DNA of 64,000 nt, from IMG/VR virus record IMGVR_UViG_3300028840_004184, positions 64,001-128,000 of that record. One strand, 5' to 3'. Source of the DNA: a virus. The notes under the pieces are model-generated. The model saw only the letters and a list, made by a program, of their open reading frames with translations, made no database searches and was not told the DNA's origin. The first letter of the stretch is position 1. Every line of letters begins with the position of its first letter. The translations under genes were made by a program, and so were the position numbers. Of this stretch, positions 8,470 through 58,974 are shown in pieces.

Positions 8470-8472
8470 TGC

Positions 8473-8679
8473 TCAAACGCCGCAGGGCTTCTGCGGTCTC
8501 CTTTTTTCTTTCCCTCTACGTGGGCATTTATCTGCTTTTACCAGTTTGTAGCAGAATGGCATATTTTCTGTGCCACGGTAAATTCCCCCACGAGATATGC
8601 CATATTTACAGTGACATTTTTTATGCCAGGGGCATGCTGGTACCCTATATTCGCATTTTCTTATTCTTATATTACTCAC
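8473..8679 (-). CDS. Small Cys-rich hypothetical protein
   Basis: Overlaps the stop of the upstream gene. Confidence 0.5.
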   Translation of the reverse strand: MSNIRIRKCEYRVPACPWHKKCHCKYGISRGGIYRGTENMPFCYKLVKADKCPRRGKEKRRPQKPCGV

Positions 8680-9155
8680 TTTTGTAAGTCACTCCACTGT
8701 AGTAAGTTAATCGGTACTTTGTACGCAGGTTTGTTGCCTGCCGTGAACCATTTGACCAGTTCGCATCTTGCTGCTATCACTTTACATTGTCTAACCCCTA
8801 TTAAGGTAAACTTAGGTACGTTTTCTTTCCATCCGTTTACCATAAGAATTTGGGCCTTTTTACGTATGCATGTATGAAGCTTACCCTCCTTAAGATGAAA
8901 ATGGGTTGGGCACATTGGATTAGCATACTGAATTTCCACCAAGCCAAGTTTTTCTATTTCGTAGTCTGGGTCTGTGGTGACGTTTTTATTGTTTCTGATA
9001 AATCTGCCGCTATTGTCTGACCCTTTGTCCCAATATTTTAGGTCGGTTTTGCCAATTGTTTTAAGCCAGCATTTCAGTATAGTCACCTGATCTCGGGTGC
9101 TCCGCTTAATGTCTTTTCTAAACTCCTCTTCGGTCCTTCTATCAAATCTACTCAT
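8676..9155 (-). CDS. Putative PD-(D/E)XK-type nuclease
   Basis: 'PDYEI...VEIQY' pattern. Confidence 0.45.
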   Translation of the reverse strand: MSRFDRRTEEEFRKDIKRSTRDQVTILKCWLKTIGKTDLKYWDKGSDNSGRFIRNNKNVTTDPDYEIEKLGLVEIQYANPMCPTHFHLKEGKLHTCIRKKAQILMVNGWKENVPKFTLIGVRQCKVIAARCELVKWFTAGNKPAYKVPINLLQWSDLQK

Positions 9156-9251
9156 ATTATACCTTCTTTTCCTGTAAAGTCAAGGAAGTTTTGCCCAGAA
9201 TTTTTAAGTCCTGGGCAAATACTGTTCTACCTTACGAGATTTTAACCGAAC

Positions 9252-9752
9252 TTATTCGTCGAAAAATGGAGATGATTCATTATTTCCCACATGTTCGTTC
9301 GCTATAAGTGGAGAATCTTGGGTCGCGGTTACAACATCAACTCCCTGTTCCTCTTGAGTTTCGGCCAATACGGGGGTGTCGGCCTGGGGCTGGACAAGAT
9401 CCTGTATGTGTGATAGATTAAGATTTACTTTGTTCCCTCCGAGTGCCTCAACCTTGTTGTTAAGATTAGTGAAAGTCTCGAAGGTTTTTTTGGGATCATC
9501 AATGCTTGTCACATCCCGAAGTGCCTGTTTAGCATCTTGAACTGCTTTGCTTAGTTTGTTCATTTTTTCAAGGATGATCACGATATTTTTCCGCTGTTGT
9601 GTAGCCTTTTTTAATTCGGCTGGAGACTTGTGTTTTTGCTCAATGCTTTCAATTAGGGCCACAGCACGGGGGTCGTTCTTTTCCCAACCAGCAGCTTCAA
9701 TAACTCGCTTGGCTCGATCGAGGTCGATTACTCGTTTGGTTCTTCGCTTCAT
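9252..9752 (-). CDS. Coiled-coil hypothetical protein
   Basis: AAGGAG SD, helical composition. Confidence 0.65.
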   Translation of the reverse strand: MKRRTKRVIDLDRAKRVIEAAGWEKNDPRAVALIESIEQKHKSPAELKKATQQRKNIVIILEKMNKLSKAVQDAKQALRDVTSIDDPKKTFETFTNLNNKVEALGGNKVNLNLSHIQDLVQPQADTPVLAETQEEQGVDVVTATQDSPLIANEHVGNNESSPFFDE

Positions 9753-9765
9753 GTGTAGTTACTCC

Positions 9766-10737
9766 TTAAGTAAAATAGTTTGTAAATTTATTAGACCAAT
9801 AACTGATTATATTATGTATAAATGTTATATTGCTGTGTTGTGATGGTATCACTTGAATCGGTGCTGTTTTTAATACCGACCTTTTAATAAGTGGTCCCAT
9901 CTCATCCCAAAAATGTGATAGTGCCCTTTTCACAACGGAGTTTTTCGTATATTTACTCATTTTGAATTTAGCTACCTTCCATAATTCTTTTTGTTGATAG
10001 GCAGATAATTCAAAGATCTTAGATGGGAAAAATTGTTCCGTTTCTGGTGGGATTATAATGCTTTGTCTTATAGCATGTTTTAGCAACCTTGTCCATACCT
10101 TTGGTTCTCGCGTTTTTTTTGTTGGTAATGAAGGTGTCAAGAACGCCTTTCTGTGTTGGGTAAATCTGTAAAATTCTGTCGTACTTATTTTAGTTTCGTT
10201 TTCATCTATTCCCACTTGGCAAAAATTCCAGTCGAAACCTTGTAGAATTTTTAATGGATCATTTATGTTATCCACATTCATAAATATAAGTTGTATTTTT
10301 TTGTCCCATTTTGTGTCTATGTATTGATACTCAAATATAGCAGCAATGTTATGTTTTGATGATTTGAAGTGCTTGAGTTTGAGAGCCTGTTTCTTGGTTT
10401 GCCCGATAGCTTTAAAGTTTCCTTTAGGGTTTACAAGTTTGTCTATTACATTATCCGTGATATTATTACTAAGGGGCACGAATACATCAACATCACCATA
10501 ATTATTTGTGTATCCTTCCGCAAACAATCCAGCACCACCGGCTATTAAGAATGGATGACCGTGCTGTATACGGGTATCAATAAAACCCATAACCCTGTTA
10601 AATACAGTGTTCCTGTCATAAGACGATATATTCTGTGTAGGTTCGATAATAACATGTCCTGATGGCGGATCACATACATCACACACCCAGTTTACAAGAA
10701 GCTGAGTCATTTTGTTATTACATTTGGGACATTTCAT
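9766..10737 (-). CDS. N-terminal Zn-ribbon + Pol-beta-fold nucleotidyltransferase (CCA-adding/poly(A) polymerase head-like)
   Basis: 'FLIAGGA...YGDVDVF' and 'IQLIF...FDWNFCQVG' motifs. Confidence 0.7.
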   Translation of the reverse strand: MKCPKCNNKMTQLLVNWVCDVCDPPSGHVIIEPTQNISSYDRNTVFNRVMGFIDTRIQHGHPFLIAGGAGLFAEGYTNNYGDVDVFVPLSNNITDNVIDKLVNPKGNFKAIGQTKKQALKLKHFKSSKHNIAAIFEYQYIDTKWDKKIQLIFMNVDNINDPLKILQGFDWNFCQVGIDENETKISTTEFYRFTQHRKAFLTPSLPTKKTREPKVWTRLLKHAIRQSIIIPPETEQFFPSKIFELSAYQQKELWKVAKFKMSKYTKNSVVKRALSHFWDEMGPLIKRSVLKTAPIQVIPSQHSNITFIHNIISYWSNKFTNYFT

Positions 10738-10943
10738 TCGCTTAATCGCCGCGAAGGCTTACTCCATTTATTAAGTCTTTCAAGACATTCTACACAGTCT
10801 GGTTTTCTATATTTATAACCCCATGGCATTATTACTACGTGTTCACATAATGTATGTACGTTATCTATTTCATTACTGGGTTTTTGGTTGTTTTTTGTGG
10901 CACAAAACCCGTTACTATGTTCGACGCACCATACTTTTTTCAT
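10734..10943 (-). CDS. Small Cys/His hypothetical protein
   Basis: 4-nt overlaps with both neighbours. Confidence 0.6.
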   Translation of the reverse strand: MKKVWCVEHSNGFCATKNNQKPSNEIDNVHTLCEHVVIMPWGYKYRKPDCVECLERLNKWSKPSRRLSE

Positions 10944-11317: not shown

Positions 11318-11320
11318 CCT

Positions 11321-11722: not shown

Positions 11723-12461
11723 TAGCTATATCCACGTATTGTTTACTTATATCAAAACCAAGCCATCTACGGTTTAGTTTTTTCGCTACCTTAAGAGTTG
11801 TTCCAATACCACAAAAAGGATCGACAACAAGGTCACCAGCATAACTAAGCATTTGTATAAGCCTATAAGGCAATTCTTCTGGGAAAACGGCAGGATGTAC
11901 CTCGTGTTTAACTCCTGGAAACTTCCATATGCCATTAGAAAACTTAACAAACTCTTCTTTTGAAACAGTTATTTTTTCTTTATCACCTTCCTTGCGATGT
12001 GTTTTGTGTGCAAACACCAGTATGTATTCAAACGGTCTAGGGAAAGACGGGTTAAGAGGAGATTGGAACGATCCCCACGCCGTTCTATTGCTTGTACTCC
12101 CTTTGTCCCACAAAATAATTGTTACAGGGAGAAATCCCAGATTGTCAGTCATTCTCTGTATAATGTCAGAATGAGTGGGGACCTTCCCGTTTTTGCCGTC
12201 TCCTATATTGATGCAAACCCTAGCACCGTCTTTTAAAAGAGGCATAAGGCGAACCATTTTCATCATTAACCACTCTATATAGTCTTTGTGATCTTTATTG
12301 TCGTTATATAGATCATAGGGACGCTTATTGTATTTGTTGTTTCCCAAGTTAATGTTGTATGGTGGAGAGCAAATAACCATATCTATTATCGGGTCTTTTA
12401 CGTACTTATTTATATTAATACAATCATCACATATGGCTTTATTAATTATGTTTTTATGCAT
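11712..12461 (-). CDS. DNA amino-methyltransferase, beta class (likely N4-cytosine)
   Basis: Catalytic SPPY before SAM-binding DPFCGIGTT; HPAVFPEEL. Confidence 0.92.
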   Translation of the reverse strand: MHKNIINKAICDDCININKYVKDPIIDMVICSPPYNINLGNNKYNKRPYDLYNDNKDHKDYIEWLMMKMVRLMPLLKDGARVCINIGDGKNGKVPTHSDIIQRMTDNLGFLPVTIILWDKGSTSNRTAWGSFQSPLNPSFPRPFEYILVFAHKTHRKEGDKEKITVSKEEFVKFSNGIWKFPGVKHEVHPAVFPEELPYRLIQMLSYAGDLVVDPFCGIGTTLKVAKKLNRRWLGFDISKQYVDIANGI

Positions 12462-12951
12462 TTTTATACACTTTATAGTTTTTGTTTTTGAGTATTTTTT
12501 TCATTATATTTGTGGATCTGGTTACCCATTGCCAATTACGTGGTATATTTTTCCCACCACGAGATTTAGGGATTATATGATCTACGGTAGCGTCGAAACC
12601 TAATTCAAGTTTTTCATTTGTATAAGCACATTGATAGTTTTGTTTTTCAAGAATATTTTGTAAATCTTTCCAGTGTTTATTGGTGCCTGTAATTTTGTAT
12701 GACTTAGTTTTAAGCCAACATATTTCACACTTTACGCCAACGATAGCTTGACAACCACAATAGGGACATAGCCCAGATTGTTTCCGCTGATGTTTTGTCT
12801 TGAGTTTAAGTTTCGCGGCTCTCTTTTTATTTAATTTATACCATGGATCACCACCATGTTTTCTGCGATATGCTCTCCTACAGGCATTTATTTTGTCTTT
12901 ATTTTGCTCTCTGTACACACGAAGGTATTCTTTTCGTTCTTGACGATTCAT
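12454..12951 (-). CDS. HNH endonuclease
   Basis: 'QNYQCAYT...TVDHIIPKSRGG..NWQWV...NIMK'. Confidence 0.85.
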   Translation of the reverse strand: MNRQERKEYLRVYREQNKDKINACRRAYRRKHGGDPWYKLNKKRAAKLKLKTKHQRKQSGLCPYCGCQAIVGVKCEICWLKTKSYKITGTNKHWKDLQNILEKQNYQCAYTNEKLELGFDATVDHIIPKSRGGKNIPRNWQWVTRSTNIMKKILKNKNYKVYKNA

Positions 12952-15233: not shown

Positions 15234-15620
15234 GTGAGAAAAACATTTACACTTCGTGGTCTTAAGGGTAAATTGATTATGTCACAGAATACAATGGATG
15301 ATTTCGATAAACTTTTTCCTGGCTTATCAGAAAAGATATTTGAGCAGTTTTACGGTGATGCTGATCATGGTATATTAATATGGAATAGAGAACAATTAGA
15401 CAGAGAAGGTTTCAACCATACGTTTTGTGCTGAAATAATATTACATGGGCAACATATTTATGTAAGCTGTCAAGACGGAAATTGGAATGGATCAGAGATA
15501 CTGGATTTTGAATGTTGTAAATTAGATAATCATCAAGAAAATATATGTCCATATTGTGGTGGACAAATAGAAACAATTATTGGAAACTTTAAAATATGTC
15601 AAAAGTGTGAGGATTGTTAA
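15234..15620 (+). CDS. Hypothetical protein with C-terminal Zn ribbon
   Basis: CPYC...CQKC; ATG start probably at 15279. Confidence 0.6.
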   Translation: MRKTFTLRGLKGKLIMSQNTMDDFDKLFPGLSEKIFEQFYGDADHGILIWNREQLDREGFNHTFCAEIILHGQHIYVSCQDGNWNGSEILDFECCKLDNHQENICPYCGGQIETIIGNFKICQKCEDC

Positions 15621-15621
15621 T

Positions 15622-16902
15622 ATGAGAAATCTTGCTTCTATCCAGAAGATCAAAAGCCTTCAACCCATTGAAGGGGCTGATAAAATTGAAGTGGCTCGCG
15701 TTCTTGGTTGGGATGTTGTGGTAAAAAAGAATGAGTTTCAGCCTGGAGATCTCTGTGTCTATATTGAAATTGATTCTGTTCTACCATCGCGGGATGAGTT
15801 TAATTTTTTACTTAAGCTAACGGCTAAATGCTCTAATGACAATTGCCCAAATCGTTGGCAGGTTCCATATGATTTTAAGCTTATTGGTGGTCGTGTATAC
15901 TGCCCTAAGTGTGATAAGCTAAGCGAAGAGATCGAGGAGATTCCTGAAGTCAAGCAAGAAAAAATGAGACGTATTCGAACTATTAGGCTTCGCGGTCAGT
16001 TATCTCAGGGAATTGTTTTCCCATTGTCGATCTTGCCTAATAATGCCATGTGTTTTAAGAAAGATATGGTAGATACCGATGTTACTGAAGCCCTCGGTAT
16101 TAAGAAATATGAGCCCCCTATTGCTAGCGGCCCTGGTGGCCCCAATCGTAACAAGAGAACTAAGGGGAAGCGACCTATTTATGTACCACTGACTGACGAG
16201 ACCCGTGTACAGATCCTGGGTCCTGTTATCGAGAAATATCAAGGAACCGTGGGTTATATTAGTGAGAAACTGGACGGCTCTAGTTTCTCTGCTTCGCTCG
16301 TAGGAGGTAAGTACGAGGTATGTAGCCGGAATATGAATTTGGCAAAGCCCGGACTTCCTTGGTTACGCAGGTTATTGAATTGGTACTGGCAGTTGCGAAA
16401 CCGACAAGAAATGGTCCGTCATCCCGAAAGGGTAGACGCCTGGTGGTCTGTGGCCAATACTCTTGGTTTAAAAGAACGCATGCAAAAGTACTGTAAAAAT
16501 CATGGAATAAGAAATATTGTTTTACAGGCAGAATTAATAGGACCTAGAGTACAAGGAAACAAATACGCACTAGATGATTACGACCTTTACGTTTTTCAAA
16601 TTTATAATCCCGACACTGATAGTTATTTTAGTTTTATTGATTTTATTAATGCTGTTGAAGAAATGGGACTTAAAACTGTGCCAATTTTGAATGATAATTA
16701 TATTCTCGGTGGTGACAGTGATACTTTACTTCAGGTGGCGAAGGGCGATAGTGTATTAAACCCTAAAATTCCAAGGGAAGGCATAGTCTTCCGTCCATTA
16801 AAAGAAGTCTTGGTTACTTCTGGTATCGGTAGTAAGTTGCATCGAAGTAGATTAAGTTTTAAGGCAATCAATAATGATTTTCTACTAAGATATGGTGAAT
16901 AA
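15622..16902 (+). CDS. ATP-dependent RNA ligase, DRB0094 family
   Basis: MRNLASIQKI..PIEGADKIE..VLGW.VVVKK..GDLCVYIEIDS; motif I EKLDGSS; QAELIGP, FQI, REGIVF, FKAINNDFLL. Confidence 0.92.
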   Translation: MRNLASIQKIKSLQPIEGADKIEVARVLGWDVVVKKNEFQPGDLCVYIEIDSVLPSRDEFNFLLKLTAKCSNDNCPNRWQVPYDFKLIGGRVYCPKCDKLSEEIEEIPEVKQEKMRRIRTIRLRGQLSQGIVFPLSILPNNAMCFKKDMVDTDVTEALGIKKYEPPIASGPGGPNRNKRTKGKRPIYVPLTDETRVQILGPVIEKYQGTVGYISEKLDGSSFSASLVGGKYEVCSRNMNLAKPGLPWLRRLLNWYWQLRNRQEMVRHPERVDAWWSVANTLGLKERMQKYCKNHGIRNIVLQAELIGPRVQGNKYALDDYDLYVFQIYNPDTDSYFSFIDFINAVEEMGLKTVPILNDNYILGGDSDTLLQVAKGDSVLNPKIPREGIVFRPLKEVLVTSGIGSKLHRSRLSFKAINNDFLLRYGE

Positions 16903-17479
16903 TATGGGGAAAATAATCCATGGGCACAGTTTACAAAATAATAAAACCTCTACTTATCAAATATGGAAATCTATGATAAAACGTTGTTCTAATTCTAATG
17001 ATAGGTATTATGCAAATTATGGTGGCCGTGGCATCAAAGTATGTCATCGATGGAAAAAGTTTGAAAATTTTCTAAAGGACATGGGTGAAAAACCCAATGG
17101 CATGACGCTCGATAGAATTGATAATAACGGGCATTACTGTATGGAAAATTGTCGATGGGCTACTAGAAAACAACAAATGAGAAATACTCGTAGAAATAGA
17201 TTAATTACTATAAATAATAAAACCAAGTGTTTGTCCGAATGGTGCGAAGAGTTATGTCTAAATTATCACAGAACCAAAAAAAGACTTAATCGTGGGTGGC
17301 CTGTAGAAGAGGCTTTTGATATAGTGCCACATAAAGTCTTGTGCCATAAATATTTTACGTGGCATAATCAAACACTAAATATGAGACAGTGGTGTAAAGT
17401 ATTAAACCTCAAATATACTACCGTGATGATGCGTATAAAAAGTGGGTGGTCTATCCCAAGAGCCTTAGGTTTACTATAA
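16892..17479 (+). CDS. HNH homing endonuclease with C-terminal DNA-binding repeats
   Basis: YGGRGIKVC.RW..F..F..DMG, TLDRIDNNG.Y..ENCRWAT...Q..N. Confidence 0.88.
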   Translation: MVNNMGKIIHGHSLQNNKTSTYQIWKSMIKRCSNSNDRYYANYGGRGIKVCHRWKKFENFLKDMGEKPNGMTLDRIDNNGHYCMENCRWATRKQQMRNTRRNRLITINNKTKCLSEWCEELCLNYHRTKKRLNRGWPVEEAFDIVPHKVLCHKYFTWHNQTLNMRQWCKVLNLKYTTVMMRIKSGWSIPRALGLL

Positions 17480-18355: not shown

Positions 18356-18444
18356 CCTCAAACGGCAATAGCCTTAGTTTTACATTGGAGTATGAATTAA
18401 TGCATTTACCAGTTGGATAAGACTTATTAAGGACATAAAACATA

Positions 18445-18985: not shown

Positions 18986-19063
18986 AATGTTCAGTCGCCG
19001 AAGGGCTCACAAAAAAGTAGCTTTAAGATTAGCCGAATGGATTCAAGATATTTATAAATAAGT

Positions 19064-19359: not shown

Positions 19360-19446
19360 ACACTCAGTCGCCGTGGGGCTTTGATAAAAAATATTGCTCT
19401 TAGGCGAAAAAATAGATTGACAAATAAGAAAGATGTAGTATGATTA

Positions 19447-20240: not shown

Positions 20241-20275
20241 ACACTCAAGCGGCGTGGGCCTTATGGAGAAAATAG

Positions 20276-21730: not shown

Positions 21731-21767
21731 ATGCTCAATCGCCGCAAGGCTTGTTAAGGATATTATT

Positions 21768-21946: not shown

Positions 21947-22405
21947 ATGCAAACTTTTCTCCCGTACCGCGACTTTGAAAAATCGGCTAAATGTCTCGAT
22001 TATCGTCGGCTCGGTAAACAAAGAGTTGAGGCAAAACAGATCCTTAATGTTCTCCTGGGAAGGACAAATAAAAAGGGTTGGCGTAATCATCCATGCGTGA
22101 CAATGTGGCGTGATTATGAACTTGCTTTACAAGAATATTATAATATGATTCTGAAAGAATGGATAAGGCGTGGATATAAAAATAATATGGAATTTGAGTA
22201 TACTTCATATTATAAACATGGTATACTGAGGGTATATCAAGAACCATATACTAATCCTTATTATTGTAAGCCAGAATGGCTCAATAAGACATTCTGTGCC
22301 TCTCATCGTTCTAATCTGCTCCGTAAAGATCCTGAGTGGTATGGACGATTTGAGTGGGAAGAACCAAATAATTTACCGTACATTTGGCCCATTCAGTCAG
22401 CGTGA
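21947..22405 (+). CDS. Pyrimidine-dimer DNA glycosylase-like protein (MSMEG_6728 family, DenV-related)
   Basis: MQTFLPY.DF..SA..LD.RRLGKQRVEA.QI, GW.NHP...MW, SHRSNLLRKDP.WY, LPY.WP. Confidence 0.9.
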   Translation: MQTFLPYRDFEKSAKCLDYRRLGKQRVEAKQILNVLLGRTNKKGWRNHPCVTMWRDYELALQEYYNMILKEWIRRGYKNNMEFEYTSYYKHGILRVYQEPYTNPYYCKPEWLNKTFCASHRSNLLRKDPEWYGRFEWEEPNNLPYIWPIQSA

Positions 22406-22430
22406 GCCTTTTTTGTTTATGGAGTAAAAT

Positions 22431-22625
22431 ATGATTGATCCCCAAATTAAAGAATGGATCGACGGTGCTAATATTGAAATGTTGTTGAGGAAATGGAGGT
22501 TCGCAAGGTCTGGTGATCCATATTTCCAAGGAGAAGCCGGAAAGTATTATTCTGAAGTTATGGCCAAGAAACGAAATGAAGACCCGGCGGCTTATACTCG
22601 GGCTAGCAAGAATATTGGATGGTAA
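22431..22625 (+). CDS. Small conserved phage protein
   Basis: 'LLRKWRFA..GDP.FQGE.G.Y...ASK.IGW'; GGAG SD. Confidence 0.7.
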   Translation: MIDPQIKEWIDGANIEMLLRKWRFARSGDPYFQGEAGKYYSEVMAKKRNEDPAAYTRASKNIGW

Positions 22626-43185: not shown

Positions 43186-43553
43186 ATCCTAATTTAGAAG
43201 GTATTATCGGTTTTATTCCAATAAAAGATATTAAGCGTATTTTAACCAGTTATAATGTAGTATTTTATGATGATGATTTAAATTGGCAATTAAGGGCATT
43301 ATTGTTAGAGAAAATCAAAGACGGCACAATTCCCGATAGTGCTATCCATAATTTTCTTTGATTTATTCTTGACTATTGTTTTCTATCTAGTATACTCTTA
43401 ATAACAAAGACAAGGATAAGTTTTTTCAGGAGTTTAGATTATGAAACAATGGTACGCCATAGAATATTATGATAAATCTGTTTGGGAAAAAATAGCTAGA
43501 CAATCTATGGAGCAAAAAGGGGCTTGTGTCGGTTCATGGGGGGTATCGTAACA

Positions 43554-44366: not shown

Positions 44367-44635
44367 ACGCCGACGGGCTAATAATAAGGAAAAATAACCA
44401 TGATGGAAATTATAAAAATCCTTTGTTTGTTTATAGCAATTTTGTTTACTATATCATGTTTGTTTCGTGCCCATGCTAAGAATGATATTGCATTCCATAA
44501 CATGGTTATGATGAGTATAGGATGGACGGGATTTATTTATTTGCAATTTATTTACAAATAATGATTTTTGATTTGACTATCCGAATATGTTGAATATACT
44601 TTTATAACTAAGTCACATTTAAGGAGTTACGAAGC

Positions 44636-49196: not shown

Positions 49197-50120
49197 ATGA
49201 AAAAAACAAAGCTAAGCTTAACCGAAAAGAAGATAGCAGAAATGCTAACTGAAAATACAGGGACTCATTTTTTAGATTCCGGCGGGGCATATGGTCGAAA
49301 CTGGGAAAGAAACCAGGGAAGGAATTTCAAAGCTGAAAATGAAACATCTTTTCGGGCTAGCAACGGCTATCTTGAAATAACGCATAATCTTTTTCACTGG
49401 TTATCGGAACGGTTGGAATATTCTCCGGAATGGCAAAGAAGATTTTCTAGGTTTGCTAATAGAGAAGAGGAACAAAATAATTCTTGGTTTGAAACGGTTG
49501 ATAATTTCCTAGGATACTTAAGAGAAAAGGGGCATGAACTAGGCGGGATATATGGGGAAGGTGAGCCCCTAACCGTTAATACTTATAACGGGGAAGATTT
49601 GCTTTCACAAACAATTCAATATACTTATTTTACTTATAATGATTCGGAAGTAGTTATTGCTCTTTTCATTCATGGCGGTTGTGATGTTAGGGGGGGATAT
49701 ACAGCACCTAAATTTTTCACTGAAAATGGCAATTATTCCGAACTAGCTATATTAAATAATGCCGATGCTAGAATATACTGTCAAAACAAAAACGATCGTC
49801 ATTCATGGTATACTGATGATGGTTGTCATTTTTACGGGGATAATCAGGAACCGGATATAAACGGCTTTAGAAATAGCATGGAATTCATTGATTTTACTGA
49901 TGATGAAAATGATTATCCTTTTTCTATTGACAAGAATGAAAAGGGGGATATAATTAATGTATTCCATGAGGGGAAAATTATTGATTCACCTTTGAAATCA
50001 TTCAAGGGTATTCCTTTTAATGAGGTACCGATAGAAGAAAAACTAATTTTGCCTTTCGACGGGGAAACGGGAAAGGCTTTTTGTCCTATATGCGGGGAAG
50101 AATTGCTAGCCCATAGTTAA
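49197..50120 (+). CDS. Conserved phage early protein
   Basis: 'MLTENTGTHFLDSGGAYGRNWERNQ', 'NTYNGE..LSQ', 'IHGGCDVRGGYT.P'; promoter at 49125. Confidence 0.8.
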   Translation: MKKTKLSLTEKKIAEMLTENTGTHFLDSGGAYGRNWERNQGRNFKAENETSFRASNGYLEITHNLFHWLSERLEYSPEWQRRFSRFANREEEQNNSWFETVDNFLGYLREKGHELGGIYGEGEPLTVNTYNGEDLLSQTIQYTYFTYNDSEVVIALFIHGGCDVRGGYTAPKFFTENGNYSELAILNNADARIYCQNKNDRHSWYTDDGCHFYGDNQEPDINGFRNSMEFIDFTDDENDYPFSIDKNEKGDIINVFHEGKIIDSPLKSFKGIPFNEVPIEEKLILPFDGETGKAFCPICGEELLAHS

Positions 50121-50172
50121 GTCTCAATTGCCGACGGGCTTAATAGGGGGGATTTTAAAAGGAAACGATAAA

Positions 50173-50643: not shown

Positions 50644-50701
50644 CATGTCTAAATCTTAGTTTTTGATTTGACTTTTCTTTTCGCGGGGATATACTTAGAT
50701 A

Positions 50702-50911
50702 ATGCCGACATATGATTATCAATGTAAAAACTGTGGAAACACATTAGAGAAATTTCAAGGCATAACCGATAAGCCCCTTAAGAGGTGTCCTAGGTGCCGG
50801 AAAATGGCTCTTAAGCGAAAAATAGGACCGGGAAGTGGTTTTATATTCAGGGGGGAGCCGTTTTCAGCCAGTACTGAATATCTAGCAAAAAACAAGGATA
50901 AAAACAAATGA
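50702..50911 (+). CDS. FmdB-family zinc-ribbon regulatory protein (probably leaderless)
   Basis: MPTYDYQCKNCG..E.FQ.ITD.PL..CP.C....L.R.IG.G.G.IF.G; ATG 6 nt after -10 of the promoter at 50668. Confidence 0.85.
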   Translation: MPTYDYQCKNCGNTLEKFQGITDKPLKRCPRCRKMALKRKIGPGSGFIFRGEPFSASTEYLAKNKDKNK

Positions 50912-51132
50912 GCAAAGAAAAGGAAACGTATCCTCTAGCTGATTATCATTCAATGGCAAATCGGGCCATTAGAACCGGCGATTTTAGAAAGCCTAAAAAA
51001 GGGGAGTGGTTTCTTAGTGGGGCGATACCAGAGGCATATAAAGCCCCTAATGATTTGTCTGTTGCATATTATATCATGAGACCCGTCAAGGCTAAAACTA
51101 AAACCGTATGGATTATTAAAGAATATTATTAA
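50908..51132 (+). CDS. Small phage protein
   Basis: 'TGDFR.PKKGEWFLSGAIPEAY.APNDL'. Confidence 0.7.
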   Translation: MSKEKETYPLADYHSMANRAIRTGDFRKPKKGEWFLSGAIPEAYKAPNDLSVAYYIMRPVKAKTKTVWIIKEYY

Positions 51133-51222
51133 TCTGTTGACAAAAAGAAAATCGGGGATATAATTAAATCAACAGGAACAAACCGCCGTTTACTTTTTCA
51201 GTTAAAGAGCAGGGGGTAACAA

Positions 51223-51465
51223 ATGACAAATACAAAGACTCTTAAGGCAGTGATTCAAAAAGAATTCCCGGAATTGACTGATCAATATTTTGATGCTCAT
51301 GAATCAGATCTTTATGTTCAATGGGTGCCGGGATTAAGGCATTTTTTGCGGCATAACTTAGGCTTGCCAAGTATTCAAACATTTATGGATGATATAGACG
51401 GCTTAGCATGGCTTGACATTGCTTTTATGAATGATAATTTCTGGGATAGATTTAACTATCTGTAA
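51223..51465 (+). CDS. Small MGE protein
   Basis: 'D.HESDLYV...F.D.IDG..W.DI.F'; promoter at 51137. Confidence 0.7.
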   Translation: MTNTKTLKAVIQKEFPELTDQYFDAHESDLYVQWVPGLRHFLRHNLGLPSIQTFMDDIDGLAWLDIAFMNDNFWDRFNYL

Positions 51466-51540
51466 AATAAACCCCTTCTTTTCCTGTTGCTATAGGCGGG
51501 GGGATTTATCCCCCTGCCTAGGCTCTTAAGAGGAAACAAT

Positions 51541-51744
51541 ATGGATAAATATAATATTCAATGGAAAAATCGAATAATCAATAATCAACCTGGTATATCA
51601 TTAAAAGAAACTGGGTATTATTTTATTGATCATTATGGGTGTTGGCATAAAGTTAAGGTTATTGCTATAACCGATAGCAAAACAGCAAAAAATAAAATAG
51701 ATGATGAATTTTATATGATAGGGGAATATCCGGAAAATTATTAA
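51541..51744 (+). CDS. Hypothetical protein
   Basis: GAGG SD. Confidence 0.6.
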   Translation: MDKYNIQWKNRIINNQPGISLKETGYYFIDHYGCWHKVKVIAITDSKTAKNKIDDEFYMIGEYPENY

Positions 51745-51822
51745 TTTTTCGTTGACAATATAAAACAACAGGGTATAATTGAGTATCGTAACAAAAGGAA
51801 GTTTTTTTAGGGGTCAAAAATT

Positions 51823-52038
51823 ATGAGTACAATCGGAAAAGTCATCATGGGTGCCGGTCGGGAAAAATCGTATACTTCCCCCACCTCCCCCCTCGTTTAT
51901 CTCCGTCACGAGGTTGATTTGAACGGGGATTTTATGGAAGAATGGAAAAAGCTCGACGATACCACCAAAGAATGGTATCGAGCCGCCGCTCTGGCGGAAA
52001 TGGAAGCAAATAATATTCCTGTCCAGGGTAAAAAGTAA
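51823..52038 (+). CDS. Hypothetical protein, own transcription unit
   Basis: Promoter at 51752, terminator at 52082. Confidence 0.7.
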   Translation: MSTIGKVIMGAGREKSYTSPTSPLVYLRHEVDLNGDFMEEWKKLDDTTKEWYRAAALAEMEANNIPVQGKK

Positions 52039-52081
52039 AATTGTTGTAGTGGATTGTAAGCCCCACTAATTTCATGGATAA

Positions 52082-52116
52082 GCCCCGTTGTGGATCGGCC
52101 ACGGCGGGGTTTTTTT
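52082..52116 (+). terminator. Intrinsic terminator
   Basis: GCCCCGTTGTGG/CCACGGCGGGGT + T tract. Confidence 0.8.
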
Positions 52117-52146
52117 ATTGCTATCTGGGGACCGGGGTAAAGCCCT

Positions 52147-52336
52147 GCGAGTAAGCGGTTTTAAGTTATATCGCGAGTAAGTAGTTTCCCTCTATAGGTG
52201 GCAAGTAAGCGGTTGTCCTATATAGGCACCCTGCCGGGGGGGTGTTACCGAGTGGTAACGTTACCGAATGGTGACGCTCAATGTTACCAAAATGTGACTT
52301 GTAGTCAAATGGCGACATGTTACCGAAAAGTAACAT
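52147..52336 (+). repeat. Repeat cluster 4 (3 AGTAAG-TATAG copies + GTTACC..GGTAAC palindromes)
   Basis: Copies at 52147, 52173, 52201; four GTTACC-led imperfect palindromes. Confidence 0.7.
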
Positions 52337-52494
52337 AGGCAGATTTTAGGTATATGTTAGCATTATACAATACAAAAGAAAAATCGTCAATATGAATTTT
52401 TTTTTATTAAGTTATTGACTATATTATTCCGACAATATATAATAGTATTATGTTTTTTTGTTATTTGACAAATCATCTTTTAAGGAAAAGCATT

Positions 52495-52680
52495 ATGGCG
52501 AAAAAAGGAAAGGCTAGCAACAAAACGGAAATGCTTTGCAATGAATGTAACCATACTTTCAAACGTGTTATAGGTAAAAATACGTTTGAGGTTAGATGCC
52601 CTAAATGTAAAGGGTATGATACGGAACCAAGCGGTTACATATTGGTTGTGAATCCTTTACGTACCAACACAAGAGGATAA
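52495..52680 (+). CDS. Small Zn-ribbon protein
   Basis: CNECNH.F...CPKC; promoter at 52415. Confidence 0.7.
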   Translation: MAKKGKASNKTEMLCNECNHTFKRVIGKNTFEVRCPKCKGYDTEPSGYILVVNPLRTNTRG

Positions 52681-53074
52681 CATGGAAAAGACTAAACTCA
52701 TTTTGTTACAAGAGGATATATCCTCTAGGTTAAGGCTCTTAAAAAGGTTTAACGGAAATCCTGATAGAATCAAAGAGTTATCCGAAAAAAACAAAGCCTT
52801 ATCGGATCAAATCAAACGTAAAGCCTAGCAACACAAAAATTTAGCCCCTAAAAAAATTTTTAGGGGCTAAATTATTTTATCCTTCATTTTACCCGTTTAT
52901 CGGTCGATAATATATATTAGTCAAGGAAAATTAACAAAAGGGGTTAAAAATGAAACACTTAATCGATAAAGCAAAACTTTACAGTACTATCCCGGTTATC
53001 GCAATAGTTATTTATATTTTTGCGAGAATAGCAATAACCCTTAGTACTGTAACCCGATAAAGGGGTTATCATAA

Positions 53075-53281
53075 ATGATGATTATCGAAGCTAAAATGCT
53101 AGTCTTGTCTAGCATTTTAGACGAAAACGTTTATCAGACTAGTGTTATATCATCATTAATTAATGATGAAACGCATATTAAACTTTTAGATATTTTTGAA
53201 AAACTACAAGATACATATGGATTAGAAAAATCCATTAACTTTTTCCGTAAATATAGGGGAGAAAAGCCTTTAGATTTTTAA
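53075..53281 (+). CDS. Hypothetical protein
   Basis: AGGGG SD; N-terminus IEAKML similar to 54609..54878. Confidence 0.55.
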   Translation: MMIIEAKMLVLSSILDENVYQTSVISSLINDETHIKLLDIFEKLQDTYGLEKSINFFRKYRGEKPLDF

Positions 53282-53290
53282 GGGGTTAAA

Positions 53291-53497
53291 ATGGCGAAAA
53301 TTCCGGATATGTCAAAATGGCCTAGTTTTCACGTTCCTATGAATCATCATAAAACTAGTGGAATAAAACCTTTAACCCCTAGACAAGAAAAACTTTTGCA
53401 ACTAGTTAGAATGTACCGAAAAGCAAAATCTAAAAACGTTAAATCAAGAATATTAGACAAGATACATCAGATTGAATTAAACCCCTTAAGAGATTAA
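53291..53497 (+). CDS. Hypothetical protein
   Basis: AGGGG SD. Confidence 0.55.
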   Translation: MAKIPDMSKWPSFHVPMNHHKTSGIKPLTPRQEKLLQLVRMYRKAKSKNVKSRILDKIHQIELNPLRD

Positions 53498-53713
53498 GGG
53501 GCTTTTGTCATTATTGATTGAACATTGACAAATGATTTTCCTAATAAGGGGCTTTGTATGCTCAAAAATGACCGAAAAAGACGATTCAGGCGAAAAGCCT
53601 TCAATACCCTTATCAAGCTTAAGAATAGGCTTAAAGGGGTTATCAGGGGCTTTTGTGAAGGTTTATTTGATCAAGATGAAAGGGGTTATTTCATCAAATA
53701 AGGGGTTTCAAAA

Positions 53714-53923
53714 ATGGGAATAGTTATGAAAACATTTTGTACATCTAACAAAAAATCATTTCTTGGAAGAATAGAAAGATTATCCCTTGAACTAGAAAAC
53801 CATTTCAAGAGGATAACCGTTATTCCAGATAAAAAGACTAGGATCAAGAAAAGGGATGAAATCAATTTTTTGACGGATTTTCTATATCGGGATATGAAAT
53901 ATAATCCTCTTGAAAATCACTAG
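53714..53923 (+). CDS. Hypothetical protein
   Basis: AGGGG SD, followed by a terminator. Confidence 0.5.
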   Translation: MGIVMKTFCTSNKKSFLGRIERLSLELENHFKRITVIPDKKTRIKKRDEINFLTDFLYRDMKYNPLENH

Positions 53924-53946
53924 CGAAAACTGTACCAAACAAATAG

Positions 53947-53972
53947 AAAACCCGGATTTATCCGGGTTTTTT
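53947..53972. terminator. Bidirectional intrinsic terminator
   Basis: AAAACCCGGA-TTTA-TCCGGGTTTT. Confidence 0.75.
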
Positions 53973-53993
53973 ATTTTTTATATTGTTAATTAT

Positions 53994-54010
53994 TGGTATA
54001 CCTTTTGCTA
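53994..54010 (+). promoter_or_regulatory. Sigma54-like -24/-12 site
   Basis: TGGTATACCTTTTGCTA (GG-N10-GC). Confidence 0.45.
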
Positions 54011-54260
54011 TGCCCTAATCTATACCCTAAAATCTGGGATTCGTTTTGATACATGATTTTGATACGTTATTAGAGCCCCATATTTAGCCCCTATCGCATA
54101 TTAACACCTAGGACGTATCTTAACCCTATTTTCTGGAGAATTCAATTTATACCTAATAAACCCCTAACAAAAAAAGAAAATAAATTTATTTTGTTTTTGA
54201 TTTTTTATTTAGGTTAGGTATACTTAATAGACGATATAAAGGAATGAAGGGAAAAAGAAA

Positions 54261-54500
54261 ATGAATAGATTATCAGATGAAATTATTTTACGTGATAATG
54301 ATCATTTTGAAGGGGAAATAATAAGGTATCCGATTGATTTCATGTTTGAAAACTTTGGACCTTATGAAACCCTTGACGGAAAAACGGTACCGATACAACA
54401 ATATCGTTTTTATATGAATGTAGGTTGTACCGGTAACAAATGGCAAGCTTGCTATATTTGGGATATTAACTCTAGGCAATGGACATTAGGGGCTAATTAG
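54261..54500 (+). CDS. Hypothetical protein
   Basis: Promoter at 54197. Confidence 0.6.
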   Translation: MNRLSDEIILRDNDHFEGEIIRYPIDFMFENFGPYETLDGKTVPIQQYRFYMNVGCTGNKWQACYIWDINSRQWTLGAN

Positions 54501-54608
54501 ACAATCGATAGGAATAGGGGAGAATAGGGTTATAAAAGGAACTAGAAAGCCTTTGAATCCTGATAATTTCTAAGATCCTATTCCTAGTTTTTTATAAAAG
54601 GGGTTTTT

Positions 54609-54878
54609 GTGTTACGTCCTATCGAAGCAAAATTATTGATTCTCTATTGTATTATGTCTTTCGATGTTTTGCCTAATTTTACATCAAATCATTTTACTTT
54701 AGTCAATAATAGATTTGCCTTATTGGAATCGGAATATAATAAACCGGTTGATGATTATCACACCGATAGATTAATCGATAAATATGCTGCCTATTATGAA
54801 TATCCCGATTTGTTTGAAATAGGGGTAGAATACGATAGATTCGGGAATAGATGGTATACAGGAAAAGAGGATAAATAA
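54609..54878 (+). CDS. Hypothetical protein
   Basis: AGGGG SD, GTG start. Confidence 0.55.
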   Translation: MLRPIEAKLLILYCIMSFDVLPNFTSNHFTLVNNRFALLESEYNKPVDDYHTDRLIDKYAAYYEYPDLFEIGVEYDRFGNRWYTGKEDK

Positions 54879-55060
54879 TGGTATACTTTAGAGAATTGAA
54901 AGGCGAAAAGCCTATTGAATATGATAATCAAAGATGGTTATATGTTCATGATATTAAAGAAGGAAAAAACACATATTTGCATCTAAACTGCGATTGTCAA
55001 GTTGATGAAGAGGGATATTGTCTTTTATGCGGTTGTCCTAGTCCAATAGTGATTAAATAA
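54878..55060 (+). CDS. Small Cys-containing protein
   Basis: GAGG SD; last + strand gene. Confidence 0.55.
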   Translation: MVYFRELKGEKPIEYDNQRWLYVHDIKEGKNTYLHLNCDCQVDEEGYCLLCGCPSPIVIK

Positions 55061-55090
55061 AAAATACTCCTTTTCCCATTTCCTGATTTT

Positions 55091-55121
55091 AGCCCCTGGA
55101 TTAAATCCAGGGGCTTTTTTT
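55091..55121 (+). terminator. Intrinsic terminator
   Basis: AGCCCCTGGAT/ATCCAGGGGCT + T tract. Confidence 0.85.
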
Positions 55122-55194
55122 ATTGTCTAGTCATATCCTAATAATACCCTAGCAAAAAGCATACCAAACCACTAATAAAATTAAATTTATTTTT

Positions 55195-55460
55195 TGTCTT
55201 GACGTATTCCAATGCGTCAAGATGTTACCATATGGTAACGGTCATTTTGACATGTCAACCTGCCAGCTTGGCAGGGTACCCGGTTTTTTAATTTCCTGCC
55301 ATTTTGACACTGCCATTTTGGCAGCCGGGGGGGCCATCTATCAACGCCCCGCCTCGGCGTGAGCCGAGTTGCTCACCCAAGTTGTCAAAAATCGATGACC
55401 CCCCGGTTCAAAAAAGTTGCTCACCTAAGGGGGACACCCCCTTAAAACCCCCGGCTTCTT
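55195..55460. repeat. Palindrome/direct-repeat-rich non-coding block at the strand convergence
   Basis: TGCCA-N3-TG(A/G)CA palindromes, GTTACCATATGGTAAC, AGTTGCTCACCYAAG x2, G/C runs. Confidence 0.65.
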
Positions 55461-56898: not shown

Positions 56899-57368
56899 CT
56901 AAGTTGTCCATTGATCATTTTTTCCCAAAACTCATGAATAACTTTTAGTTCACTCTTTGTGAATCTTATTTCAGCGGTAGAACTCGTTTTTGTAAACACG
57001 GCTCCCCATTGAGGGGCTGCTTTGCTATTTATTATACACAACCCATCTTGACTATAGTTACTATCCCAGACTGGTACCTGAATAGCATTGTTATGATCAA
57101 AAAAGAGCCATCTTTGTTTTACTATCTTTTCAATATCACTTCTACGAAAGAACCATTCTATTGTACTATTTAACACACTAACCCTGAAAAACGTATTTTC
57201 CGAACGATACGAAAAGAGAACACCATTTACATCGATGACGGTATTAGATGCGGAAGATATTTTATCATTAGAAGAACATTTTTCACAGACACAACTTGTC
57301 AGCAAGGGAATCATTTTATTTCCGCAAACTGGACATATCTTTTCACATTTAGTTCGCCTTGTTACCAC
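56895..57368 (-). CDS. LLTS Zn-ribbon-tagged protein
   Basis: ICPVCGNKMIPLLTSCVCEKC; GTG start after AAGGAG. Confidence 0.7.
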   Translation of the reverse strand: MVTRRTKCEKICPVCGNKMIPLLTSCVCEKCSSNDKISSASNTVIDVNGVLFSYRSENTFFRVSVLNSTIEWFFRRSDIEKIVKQRWLFFDHNNAIQVPVWDSNYSQDGLCIINSKAAPQWGAVFTKTSSTAEIRFTKSELKVIHEFWEKMINGQLR

Positions 57369-57441
57369 GGAACACTCCTTAACAAAAAAATATAGCGGCA
57401 AAACAGATCACGCGGGGGTTCCAAAGGGGGTATCCCCCTTT

Positions 57442-57645
57442 TTAGTCGTTTGGATCTACCTCACTGACGCCCTCGCCCTTTACCTGATCTTTAATCCTCT
57501 CTACGAGAATATACCACCAGTCTTTTTGGCTTCTATCAGACAAGCTGTTTATAAATTTAAAACCCGCCTCCTCTATAGAATCATTTTCATAAGGACACAA
57601 AAAGCCTGCTTTGTGGCGAAGCCTATCTTTTTTCTTCTTTTTCAA
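57442..57645 (-). CDS. Hypothetical protein
   Basis: 4-nt overlap with the DHH gene. Confidence 0.55.
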   Translation of the reverse strand: MKKKKKDRLRHKAGFLCPYENDSIEEAGFKFINSLSDRSQKDWWYILVERIKDQVKGEGVSEVDPND

Positions 57646-58517
57646 TTGGTTGTTCCATTTCCATCGAATAAAGTAAAAGGAGTTTCCTTACACTGAAAGC
57701 CAGATGCCCCCTTATGTCCGCCACCGCCGTGCTTTTTGGCGATATCCCCAACATTTACATCACCCTTCGTAGAATACATGGTCACAACCCAGTGTTTGCC
57801 ATTCTTGTTATAATAAACCATCATTGCATCATGTTTGTCGGGATCATACACAGAGTCGAACAACTTGGACCCAGGCATACAGGCGTTCGCCGCTATGAAA
57901 CGAAGGCCCTCAAATTCGAACTCATAACACAGTGGACCACACAAGAATTCGTTTTGTTTATTAACATACTTTTGAATTGTACGACCTTCACTGACAATAT
58001 CCATAACAAGCGTATAAGAAGGCAGCATTTTGTTACCATCAAACAATATATGCCACAAACGATCGTCATCTTCCGGATTCGTGTCTCGTTGCTTGATGCC
58101 ATACTGAAACGGCAGTACGTCCATGTCTTTATGATCCCAAACGTCATACCTACCCAACAGAAAGACAGAGCGAGGCATTACTTGGTTAGGGAACAGATAT
58201 TGCCACGTAAGTTCACATGCCGCGAATTTCGTATCACGTATACCGGCTATAGCAATTTCGAATGCATTGACGCCGTTTATAGCTGTTTCGTGATGATCAA
58301 TCCAAACCAAGTCACAATGATTAAACAATGTGATCATATCTTCGTGTGGCTGCAAGGAAAAATCGACCATAAAGACAATTTCGCCTTCTGTAATAGAATC
58401 CCACGGAAATTCTTCTCCGTAATCCATGCCGATCATTTCGCATTCTGGATATTTATGTTTGACAATTGCACCAGCACAGTGGCCGTCAAGGTCTGTTGAA
58501 TGATAAAAACATTTCAT
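57642..58517 (-). CDS. DHH/DHHA1 phosphoesterase (nanoRNase NrnB-like)
   Basis: YH..DLDG, VDFS, WIDHH, YDVW, GGGGH.GASGF. Confidence 0.92.
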   Translation of the reverse strand: MKCFYHSTDLDGHCAGAIVKHKYPECEMIGMDYGEEFPWDSITEGEIVFMVDFSLQPHEDMITLFNHCDLVWIDHHETAINGVNAFEIAIAGIRDTKFAACELTWQYLFPNQVMPRSVFLLGRYDVWDHKDMDVLPFQYGIKQRDTNPEDDDRLWHILFDGNKMLPSYTLVMDIVSEGRTIQKYVNKQNEFLCGPLCYEFEFEGLRFIAANACMPGSKLFDSVYDPDKHDAMMVYYNKNGKHWVVTMYSTKGDVNVGDIAKKHGGGGHKGASGFQCKETPFTLFDGNGTTN

Positions 58518-58536
58518 TGCTCAGTCGCCGCAAGGC

Positions 58537-58974
58537 TTAGTTGCAGCCTCCATTTTCTAACACAATTTTTCTTATAAAATTACCTATACGTTTAACGCCA
58601 TTGTTTTTAATAACTATAGAGTCTTTAAAAAGACGAACCCCTACGTCTGGCATCACTATCTTGCTAGCAATCGTTAATTTGCCAAACAGTATGGTAAAAT
58701 ATATCTCTCCAACACGCAATTTAGATGATGAAACTTCACTTAATAAAAAATCAGCTATTCTTGTTGCTTCTTTTTTAGAAAAATATACCCCTCTGGTATT
58801 TAGCATATCACATGACAATACCAATACATAATCTTCATGATCAGAATGTGACCATCGAGCATCATCAGTTATAATAGTTTTATCTGATGAGGTTGCTTTT
58901 TTATCGCATTCTTTGGAACAGTAAAACGAAGTTAGTAACAAAAGCATGTCTGCTCCGCATACAGGGCATTTCAT
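58537..58974 (-). CDS. LLTS Zn-ribbon-tagged protein
   Basis: MKCPVCGADMLLLLTSFYCSKEC. Confidence 0.7.
   Translation of the reverse strand: MKCPVCGADMLLLLTSFYCSKECDKKATSSDKTIITDDARWSHSDHEDYVLVLSCDMLNTRGVYFSKKEATRIADFLLSEVSSSKLRVGEIYFTILFGKLTIASKIVMPDVGVRLFKDSIVIKNNGVKRIGNFIRKIVLENGGCN

Follow-up and report, generated by a model that had tools for sequence, protein, structure and literature searches.

Why should one short, asymmetric sequence recur at gene junctions of a large phage, almost always on the same DNA strand, and what does it do there? The question arises from a 64,000-nucleotide stretch of viral DNA, positions 64,001 to 128,000 of the IMG/VR record IMGVR_UViG_3300028840_004184 (the window; coordinates below are those of the window unless a genome or contig is named), in which a first-pass annotation had described 19 copies of an intergenic hairpin motif and interpreted them as a directional DNA-level signal. 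The phage itself (G000) is complete at 170,410 bp, with terminal repeats and a G+C content of 39%. We posit, with a probability of about 0.3, that the motif acts at the DNA level as a site where accessory-gene cassettes join or recombine. More generally, the evidence favours an element that acts on DNA and is read with polarity, probably in single-stranded form. A role at cassette junctions ranks first on account of independence from transcription, one-sided anchoring at gene edges, confinement to accessory regions, association with insertions, patchy occurrence among relatives and near-uniform orientation within blocks.

A search with the consensus pattern recovered 12 matches at ≤2 mismatches, all on the + strand, against 0.01 expected, confirming both the existence and the claimed form of the motif. 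A whole-genome scan with a position weight matrix (PWM) and a covariance model built from 38 motif copies (R1) concur on 18 clear window copies, all on the + strand (Table 1). The 19 copies originally counted thus become 18 clear ones and a weak one at 22391 (13 bits, E 0.58), and the copy at 44361 was missing from the earlier list. R1 found no further site with E below 0.1 over the whole of G000. The sole copy outside the window, located by PWM and R1 alike, lies on the − strand at genome positions 22,515–22,535, inside a + strand operon to which it is antisense, and brings the R1 count for the genome to 19 copies against an expectation of about 0.01; the statement that all copies occupy the + strand therefore holds within the window but not genome-wide, where scanning both strands gives a bias of 18:1. 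Two DNA runs (sediment, seawater) and no RNA run are listed as containing the stretch, with a single contig spanning all of it, and the only joints among the contigs from these runs are cross-matches of tRNA-like pieces and of motif copies. Rfam identified only tRNAs in the window and seven other loci. A full-text literature search for the motif returned unrelated primers only, and a concept search returned the paper on the PeSL elements of T4-type phages discussed below and nothing specific.

Pattern scans of IMG/VR revealed further contigs with multiple copies, namely G001 (79 kb; 10 copies, 7 of them within 0–14 kb), G002 (75 kb; 5 copies), the temperate G003 (75 kb; 4 copies), G014 (123 kb; 8 copies), the complete G015 (209 kb; 17 copies within 159–190 kb and 2 weak matches elsewhere) and G016 (148 kb; 4 copies). 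Two phage-like contigs of a Clostridiales metagenome-assembled genome (MAG; G013, L159 and L242) also bear the motif. About 20 core genes, including those for terminase, portal, capsid, DnaE and helicase, are common to G000–G003, G015 and G016 at 20–40% identity. G007 (137 kb) and G008 (114 kb) possess these core genes too and stand nearer to G000, at 40–66% identity, yet neither has a copy of the motif. The motif thus belongs to a single, diverse clade of large phages encoding DnaE, within which its distribution is patchy. Terminase relatives show 40–47% identity, the public phage collection contains no close relative of G000, and matches in the phage database are to tRNA only. RNA-ligase relatives in metagenomes show ≤38% identity, with no motif in 413 kb, and no relatives were found for the open reading frame (ORF) at 49197.

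Across 36 copies from four genomes, aligned with 30-nt flanks, information content is sharp at both edges of a 21-nt element with the consensus R-CTCA-R-W-C-G-S-C-G-N-N-R-G-S-C-T-T-A. The core is a 3-bp stem (G-S-C / G-S-C) around a loop of 4 nt, rarely 5 nt, that opens with G and closes with a purine. Counted over distinct rows, the pair in the middle of the stem reads C-G 28 times, G-C 5 times and U-G twice, never C-C or G-G, and the covariation score was reached by 0 of 500 shuffles. The exchange of GCC/GGC for GGC/GCC that had been noted at 18356, 20243, 26210 and 27045 was borne out, the middle base pair being the only one that differs. Variants of this kind occur in G000, G003, G016 and the contig behind L281, each with its own genome's version of the flanks, indicating that the double change arose more than once. 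Support for the predicted pairing comes from covariation, not from stability. Twelve of the 21 positions are nearly invariant across genomes whose proteins share 20–40% identity, and the loops form genome-specific subfamilies (GCTG in G001, GCAR in G000 and G015, GTTA in G002 and G003). In G016, TGAG(A) comes after every copy and is complementary to the (T)CTCA box of that copy (L315 5980–9400; G016 122623), giving a potential two-tier hairpin that is absent from the other genomes.

Rough gene calling divides G000 into five strand blocks (14–69,579, +; 69,624–77,951, −; 77,991–119,060, +; 119,727–147,497, −; 148,028–170,224, +), and 14 clear copies together with the weak copy at 22391 fall in the middle + block, which also contains 19 tRNA genes, HNH genes at 16892, 24535 and 27397 and many small ORFs. 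Copies in this block start 0–8 nt past a tRNA 3' end or 0–2 nt past a stop codon and mostly end 13–19 nt ahead of the next ATG, with a Shine-Dalgarno (SD) sequence in between. Nine copies had been placed beside tRNA 3' ends, which proved accurate: eight lie 0–8 nt past called tRNAs and the ninth, at 24051, past a tRNA-like end. The latter belongs to a tRNA-like 3' half at 23975–24048 (T-arm GGTGTGAATCCTACC, acceptor end ...ACACCA) directly ahead of the motif copy, which was called by neither ARAGORN nor Rfam and may be a degenerate or unusual tRNA. The motif follows window tRNAs mainly where the next gene is protein-coding, and the tRNAs of the relatives have no motif alongside, so that the association with tRNAs is confined to this phage. 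Two HNH endonuclease genes (24535 and 27397) with a treble-clef zinc finger lie directly after tRNA-Leu and tRNA-Glu and have no motif in front, unlike most tRNA-to-ORF junctions in the window.

The copies at 8471, 10740 and 58519 lie inside minus-strand gene blocks, as first described, and with the copy at genome position 22,535 make up the four antisense copies of G000. The reverse complement of each spans an intergenic gap, touching or overlapping the upstream stop codon, and ends 1–2 nt ahead of an ATG with an SD-like sequence just upstream. Boundary distances measured for 63 copies with a score ≥18, from seven sequences, reveal a pronounced asymmetry between the two ends of the element. 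For 34 of the 63 copies, the distance of the GCTCA (5') end from an ORF or tRNA boundary falls between −3 and +4 nt, compared with 10 for the 3' end, and the medians are 2 and 29 nt, respectively. Boundaries met by the GCTCA end include same-strand stops (12), opposite-strand starts (16) and tRNA 3' ends (7). Since this end abuts gene edges of any kind, it behaves as expected for the terminus of a DNA segment and not of a transcript. None of the strong sigma70-like promoters of the window (18679, 19417, 30405, 31665, 32196) abuts a copy, and the terminators are of ordinary type and separate from the motif, except that copy 8471 shares bases with a terminator-like hairpin.

Orientation was compared with gene direction in three genomes. 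In G000, with its mixed gene blocks, the copies are 18 + and 1 −, 15 of them sense and 4 antisense when the weak copy at 22391 is counted. The genes of G001 are nearly all on the + strand and its copies are interleaved at 2 + and 8 −, with 8 of 10 antisense; the 159–190 kb block of G015, comprising about 90 small genes that are nearly all on the − strand, carries 16 + and 1 − copies, with 16 of 17 antisense. By strand count, G002 has 3 + and 2 −. Motif orientation is near uniform within a block, in keeping with a constraint at the DNA level, and its sign relative to transcription varies by genome. Antisense copies account for about 40% of the total and equal sense copies in score and conservation, which upholds the earlier preference for a DNA-level over an mRNA element, and the independence of orientation from transcription makes a role in sense mRNA unlikely. 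The related proposal that orientation follows the chromosome stands for G000 (18:1) and G015 (16:1) but not for G001, G002 or the inverted arrays of G003 and G014, and the presence of 14 of the 18 window copies in one + gene block accounts for most of the + bias within the window. As a separate observation on the G015 block, only 8 of its 81 genes have an SD-like sequence (L292/L293) and many have a −10-like hexamer 7–10 nt ahead of the ATG. This pattern suggests that the mRNAs are leaderless and that the host does without Shine-Dalgarno pairing. G000 uses SD sequences and G015 hardly does, indicating that the hosts of the two phages differ.

Copies are confined to accessory or hypervariable blocks, spanning 72–122 kb of G000 (apart from the single − strand copy), 159–190 kb of G015 and mostly 0–14 kb of G001. 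Three copies examined in conserved core modules each adjoin a lineage-specific ORF insertion. In G000, a 109-aa ORF (genome 22,204–22,533) and a motif copy separate two genes that overlap in G007, G015 and G016. G001 has an extra 149-aa ORF (75587–76036) with a motif copy one junction further along than in G000. Two tail-module genes that adjoin each other in G000, G002, G007, G008 and G015 are separated in G016 by a YopX gene, a further two ORFs and a motif copy. In both G000 and G001, the motif flanks homologous denV-like genes.

We hypothesise that the element is a 21-bp asymmetric site whose core would fold into a 3-bp mini-hairpin when the strand is single, and that it marks the edges of accessory units such as tRNAs, small early genes and inserted extra genes. 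These units would be gained, lost and reshuffled at the motif as a boundary or crossover site, through either a phage protein or the phage's own recombination acting on 21-bp identity, and selection against inversions between inverted copies could maintain uniform block orientation. Among the mechanisms listed by the first-pass annotation, a cassette-shuffling site is the best supported, by boundary anchoring and by the lineage-specific insertions beside the core-module copies. A bolder version, speculative and held with low confidence, is a clade-wide cassette system without an integrase, in which the strand-specific mini-hairpin joins tRNAs, early genes and morons, exchange depends either on a so far unrecognised type of recombinase or nuclease or on the replication-recombination machinery acting on single-stranded DNA, and the inverted arrays represent a control or origin-linked form.

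The proposed logic resembles that of integron attC sites or T4 PeSL cassettes. Integron attC sites are 57–141 bp long, contain R''/L''-L'/R' boxes with extrahelical bases and need the IntI tyrosine recombinase. Like attC arrays, including the integrase-less CALIN clusters, the motif forms repeated hairpin-capable sites at cassette boundaries in near-uniform orientation within an array, with the next gene beginning close by and a sequence apparently read on one strand. Unlike attC, it measures 21 nt with sharp edges and a 3-bp stem, the complete G000 lacks a tyrosine recombinase, and no attC-like excision or insertion event was seen at the motif. The single orientation characteristic of attC arrays is approached in G000 (18:1) and G015 (16:1), and orientation is mixed in G001 and G002. 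The PeSL elements of T4-type phages are likewise short conserved intergenic sequences in a hypervariable early region, flanking accessory genes that differ between relatives (PMC2839356). They combine a terminator-like stem-loop with a sigma70 early promoter in one orientation (PMC2839356), whereas the motif in the window is neither promoter nor terminator, occurs in both orientations relative to genes, and abuts a −35 hexamer in only nine copies (five in G015, four in G001). None of the systems compared (attC, PeSL, stoperators, nick sites) is matched by the motif in its defining features.

Several findings weigh against cassette junctions. The main argument comes from gene-less arrays in G014, L242 and G003, which are unlike cassettes and look like the protein-binding arrays of origins, operators or invertible segments. 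In G003, two + and two − copies point inward over a 1.75-kb ORF-free stretch beside an XRE-type gene, and in G014 four + and four − units of about 50 nt point inward around an ORF-free region of about 1.6 kb; a near-identical contig (3300044959_000200) has five array units on one side. The G014 region (L257 1100–3300; IMGVR_UViG_3300044939_000165) also contains seven tandem GGCGCTCATAA 11-mers, five GCGCAACGT units and simple repeats, and is a candidate origin, partition site or invertible segment. At L242 185–300 (G013:C455), 3.5 tandem 23-nt motif units and a T-run come after a TTGACA-16-TATATT promoter, an arrangement that could represent either an operator array or a small RNA gene. The comparison of relatives, none of them close, for gene gain and loss yielded the three core-module insertions described above, but neither a pair of filled and empty sites nor one cassette cut at the motif in two genomes. 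The hairpin is barely stable, at −2.1 kcal/mol for DNA and −4.9 kcal/mol for RNA, and shuffles fold no worse. Spacing to start codons is regular (13–19 nt for sense copies, 1–4 nt upstream for reverse ones) and could equally mean a role in expression, as could the nine copies that abut a −35 hexamer in G015 and G001.

Nor was a recombinase or nuclease tied to the motif. Tyrosine recombinases (PF00589) were not found in G000–G002, and the temperate G003 encodes two integrases. No Y1 transposase (PF01797) was detected in G000–G003, although control genomes matched, and neither GPA nor, above the family cut-off, Rep_OBD gave a match in G000–G003, G013 or G014–G016. An HNH-like family (phrog_374/3377), in which LDRID replaces the usual DH, is represented by three paralogues in G000, by members in G001 and L242, by three in G002 and by two in G016, and is not found in G007 or G008. 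Its L242 member (5878–6621) shares 39–44% identity with those of G000, which is high for otherwise unrelated phages. The complete G015 nevertheless has no member of the family, no member anywhere adjoins a copy, and the family was rejected as a partner. Three near-complete motif genomes (G000, G015, G016) encode a RuvB-like AAA+ protein with a C-terminal winged helix, its gene placed within or close to the block rich in motif copies, and G007 and G008 lack it; it was set aside because, in six other phages, no copy lies within 10 kb of the homologue. Neither of the two is nameable as the partner. Zinc-ribbon proteins with an 'LLTS' tag were also discounted, being specific to G000 with only two adjoining a copy.

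A possible alternative, in which we place limited confidence, is a cis-regulatory site bound by a phage regulator as an operator or roadblock, in the manner of stoperators or P1 C1 operators. The bound protein would separate tRNAs from downstream ORFs or silence early genes, with arrays repressing strongly. Stoperators of cluster A mycobacteriophages (the L5 gp71 sites) are 13-bp sequences bound as duplex in a fixed orientation relative to transcription, which they reportedly hold throughout. They and the P1 C1 operators share with the motif many dispersed asymmetric sites, short intergenic locations and a strong strand bias. The placement of every copy between genes and near gene starts fits such a role, as does the preference of the motif for window tRNAs that precede a protein gene. 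In G015, the reverse complement of ten copies ends 1–4 nt ahead of an ATG and that of five ends 1–2 nt ahead of the TTGAC(A/T) −35 hexamer of a good sigma70-type promoter; four G001 copies likewise abut such a hexamer. The L242 promoter stands directly before its tandem copies, and the four G003 copies lie in an ORF-free region beside an XRE-type repressor gene. However, G000 and G015 carry the motif in opposite orientations with respect to transcription (sense to antisense 15:4 in G000, 2:8 in G001 and 1:16 in G015), the core shows hairpin covariation and duplex binding leaves the complementarity of the middle pair unexplained, no conserved regulator was found that only the motif-bearing genomes share, and most copies have no adjoining promoter.

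We consider it unlikely that the motif is, as in the leading idea of the first-pass annotation, a polar single-strand signal for replication, nicking or recombination, such as a nick site, an ssi-type priming hairpin or a polar fork barrier. This would account for the strand bias of G000 and G015 irrespective of gene direction and for the inward arrays around ORF-free, repeat-rich, origin-like regions in G003 and G014, and the stem covariation suggests a single-stranded form. The nick sites of T5, phiKMV-like phages and tf, whose function is still unknown, have consensus sequences of 9–20 nt that all lie on one strand regardless of gene direction (PMC3517423), and HNH genes are numerous in G000. 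Those nick sites differ from the motif in being neither restricted to junctions nor associated with a hairpin, and their one-strand trait nearly holds in G000 and G015 but fails with the mixed orientations of G001 and G002 and the inverted arrays. The copies moreover span only 50 of 170 kb, too local for general lagging-strand priming, junction confinement and one-end anchoring are not required of a replication signal, and no HUH initiator was found. An origin at 50.6–55.8 kb of the window was rejected, as the region holds small ORFs and ordinary terminators. Within it, at 50700–55200, lies a second, unrelated repeat family of terminator-type hairpins (AAGCCCCTTAAGAGGGGCTTTT) between ORFs of 60–80 aa.

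Improbable, too, is a selfish, REP-like miniature repeat without a function of its own, kept in intergenic spacers where it is harmless to expression. The motif is multi-copy, intergenic, GC-rich within AT-rich genomes, present in both orientations, patchy and divided into genome-specific subfamilies, and like REPs it has a conserved 5' box followed by a GC-rich palindrome. REPs, though, are 20–40-nt repeats of host chromosomes linked to a RAYT/Y1 transposase, none of which was found in G000–G003, no target-site duplication is visible in the motif flanks, and the near-invariance of 12 positions despite the divergence of the surrounding proteins argues for selection. Among the matches listed by a scan of bacterial genomes, most were single, at chance level or within coding sequence, with a loop bias towards GCAG, GCAA and GCTG that fits Ala, Leu and Arg coding in GC-rich genomes. 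Multi-copy cases among these matches occurred on the phage-like contigs of the one MAG, which speaks against a host chromosomal repeat; matches in Latescibacterota and Streptomyces were parts of other, longer repeats, and two in Desulfobacula represent one syntenic site.

An RNA-level element, either a processing or stability hairpin 5' of the ribosome-binding site or sense copies, tRNA trailers and the L242 array among them, pairing in trans with reverse copies placed between the SD and the AUG of target genes, is very unlikely: the spacing of sense copies 13–19 nt ahead of ATG and 0–4 nt after tRNA CCA, the four G000 antisense copies whose reverse complements lie between an SD-like sequence and ATG, the promoter-driven L242 array and the −4.9 kcal/mol RNA hairpin are countered by equally conserved antisense copies, by relatives' tRNAs without the motif, by cross-genome conservation that within-genome pairing would not need and by several reverse copies without a loop-matched sense partner. 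Known transcription signals fare no better. Promoters of sigma70, sigma54, MotA-box or single-subunit polymerase type were dismissed on sequence, on the missing polymerase gene and on the opposite orientations in G000 and G015, whereby either choice of strand yields 15–16 antisense promoters in one of the two genomes. The suggested N4-type hairpin promoter in particular did not survive, given a stem of 3 bp and a loop of 4–5 nt compared with 5–7 bp and 3 nt in N4 and the lack of any N4- or T7-type RNA polymerase found. T7-type RNA polymerase (PF00940) had no match in G000–G003, a weak blank since controls gave none either; a scan of the ten largest ORFs revealed nothing polymerase-like, and no match at all was obtained for three of these ORFs or for a 724-aa ORF, which has no PHROG match. 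With 15–17 copies per block and about 40% of all copies antisense, the motif differs from the lambda nut site (boxA and boxB, one or two per operon near the promoter, sense), and its 3-bp stem, no more stable than that of shuffles, differs from intrinsic terminators with their stem of ≥5 bp and U-tract.

Table 1. Motif copies and associated features of G000 (window coordinates unless marked as genome).
Feature	Position	Strand	R1 score	Context
Motif copy	8471–8491	+	27.2 bits, E 3.6e-5	Antisense to minus-strand genes; reverse complement between SD-like AAGGAGA and ATG at 8469; overlaps stop of ORF 8473–8679
Terminator-like hairpin	8486–8502	+		CCGCAG-GGCTT-CTGCGG then T-run; inside minus-strand operon; shares bases with copy 8471; −11.7 kcal/mol as RNA, z −2.5
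Motif copy, 5-nt loop GCGAA	10740–10761	+	22.0 bits, E 1.3e-3	Antisense; 2 nt from ATG (10737) of 323-aa nucleotidyltransferase-like gene; overlaps 3' end of ORF 10734–10943
Motif copy, GGC/GCC	18356–18376	+	22.7 bits	0 nt past tRNA-Met
Motif copy	18989–19009	+	23.3 bits	6 nt past 13-bp terminator-like hairpin; upstream of tRNA-Trp
Motif copy	19362–19382	+	28.2 bits	2 nt past tRNA-Ala; downstream, sigma70-like promoter 19417–19444 and tRNA-Pro
Motif copy, GGC/GCC	20243–20263	+	27.2 bits	2 nt past tRNA-Ile; 13 nt ahead of ATG of 259-aa zinc-ribbon protein
Motif copy	21733–21753	+	28.7 bits	2 nt past tRNA-Val; 15 nt ahead of ATG, SD between
Weak, degenerate motif copy	22391–22411	+	13.0 bits, E 0.58; PWM 17.0	Overlaps 3' end of denV-like gene 21947–22405 (Pfam Pyr_excise)
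Motif copy	24051–24071	+	26.1 bits	Past uncalled tRNA-like 3' end; 12 nt ahead of tRNA-Tyr
Motif copy	25581–25601	+	31.0 bits	1 nt past tRNA-Ser
Motif copy, GGC/GCC	26210–26230	+	25.9 bits	0 nt past stop of ORF 25823–26209; upstream of tRNA-Leu
Motif copy	26363–26383	+	25.8 bits	1 nt past tRNA-Leu; 17 nt ahead of ATG
Motif copy, GGC/GCC, degenerate 5' box	27045–27065	+	19.1 bits	8 nt past tRNA-Leu; 14 nt ahead of ATG
Motif copy	28080–28100	+	28.9 bits	4 nt past tRNA-Gly; 17 nt ahead of ATG
Motif copy	33731–33751	+	27.2 bits	18 nt ahead of ATG of ORF 33769–34149
Motif copy, top score	38252–38272	+	31.2 bits, E 2.2e-6	1 nt past stop of ORF 37996–38250; 18 nt ahead of next ATG
Motif copy	44361–44381	+	21.7 bits	Overlaps stop of ORF 43524–44366; 19 nt ahead of ATG
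Motif copy	50122–50142	+	25.6 bits	1 nt past stop of ORF 49197–50120
Motif copy	58519–58539	+	30.6 bits	Antisense, fills gap between two minus-strand genes; 1 nt from ATG (58517) of DHH phosphoesterase gene; TTA end = stop (58537) of ORF 58537–58974
RuvB-like AAA+ gene	5624–6604	−
HNH endonuclease genes	12454–12951; 24535–25155; 27397–28011
LDRID-family genes	16892–17479; genome 130061–130570, 138684–139289
RNA-repair genes	15580–16902, 57642–58517; genome 139703–140509, 142301–144610

Beside its 19 tRNA genes, G000 carries a set of RNA-repair genes encoding a Thg1-like 3'-5' polymerase, an RtcB with a long N-terminal extension, an RNA ligase and a DHH phosphoesterase; the Thg1-like polymerase is also present in G001 and G015.

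Short conserved repeats at junctions offer one of the rare glimpses into how large phages assemble and rearrange their accessory genes, including tRNA sets, RNA-repair and counter-defence functions. The element described here stands out by its conservation between genomes with 20–40% protein identity, its transcription-blind orientation and its single gene-edge-anchored end, with no known recombinase, transposase or polymerase accompanying it. If it is an operator or a nick site, it would point to an unknown DNA-binding protein that controls the whole early region of these phages. If it is a crossover site, it would represent a new and very small cassette joint, and would offer a practical marker of module boundaries in uncultured phage genomes.

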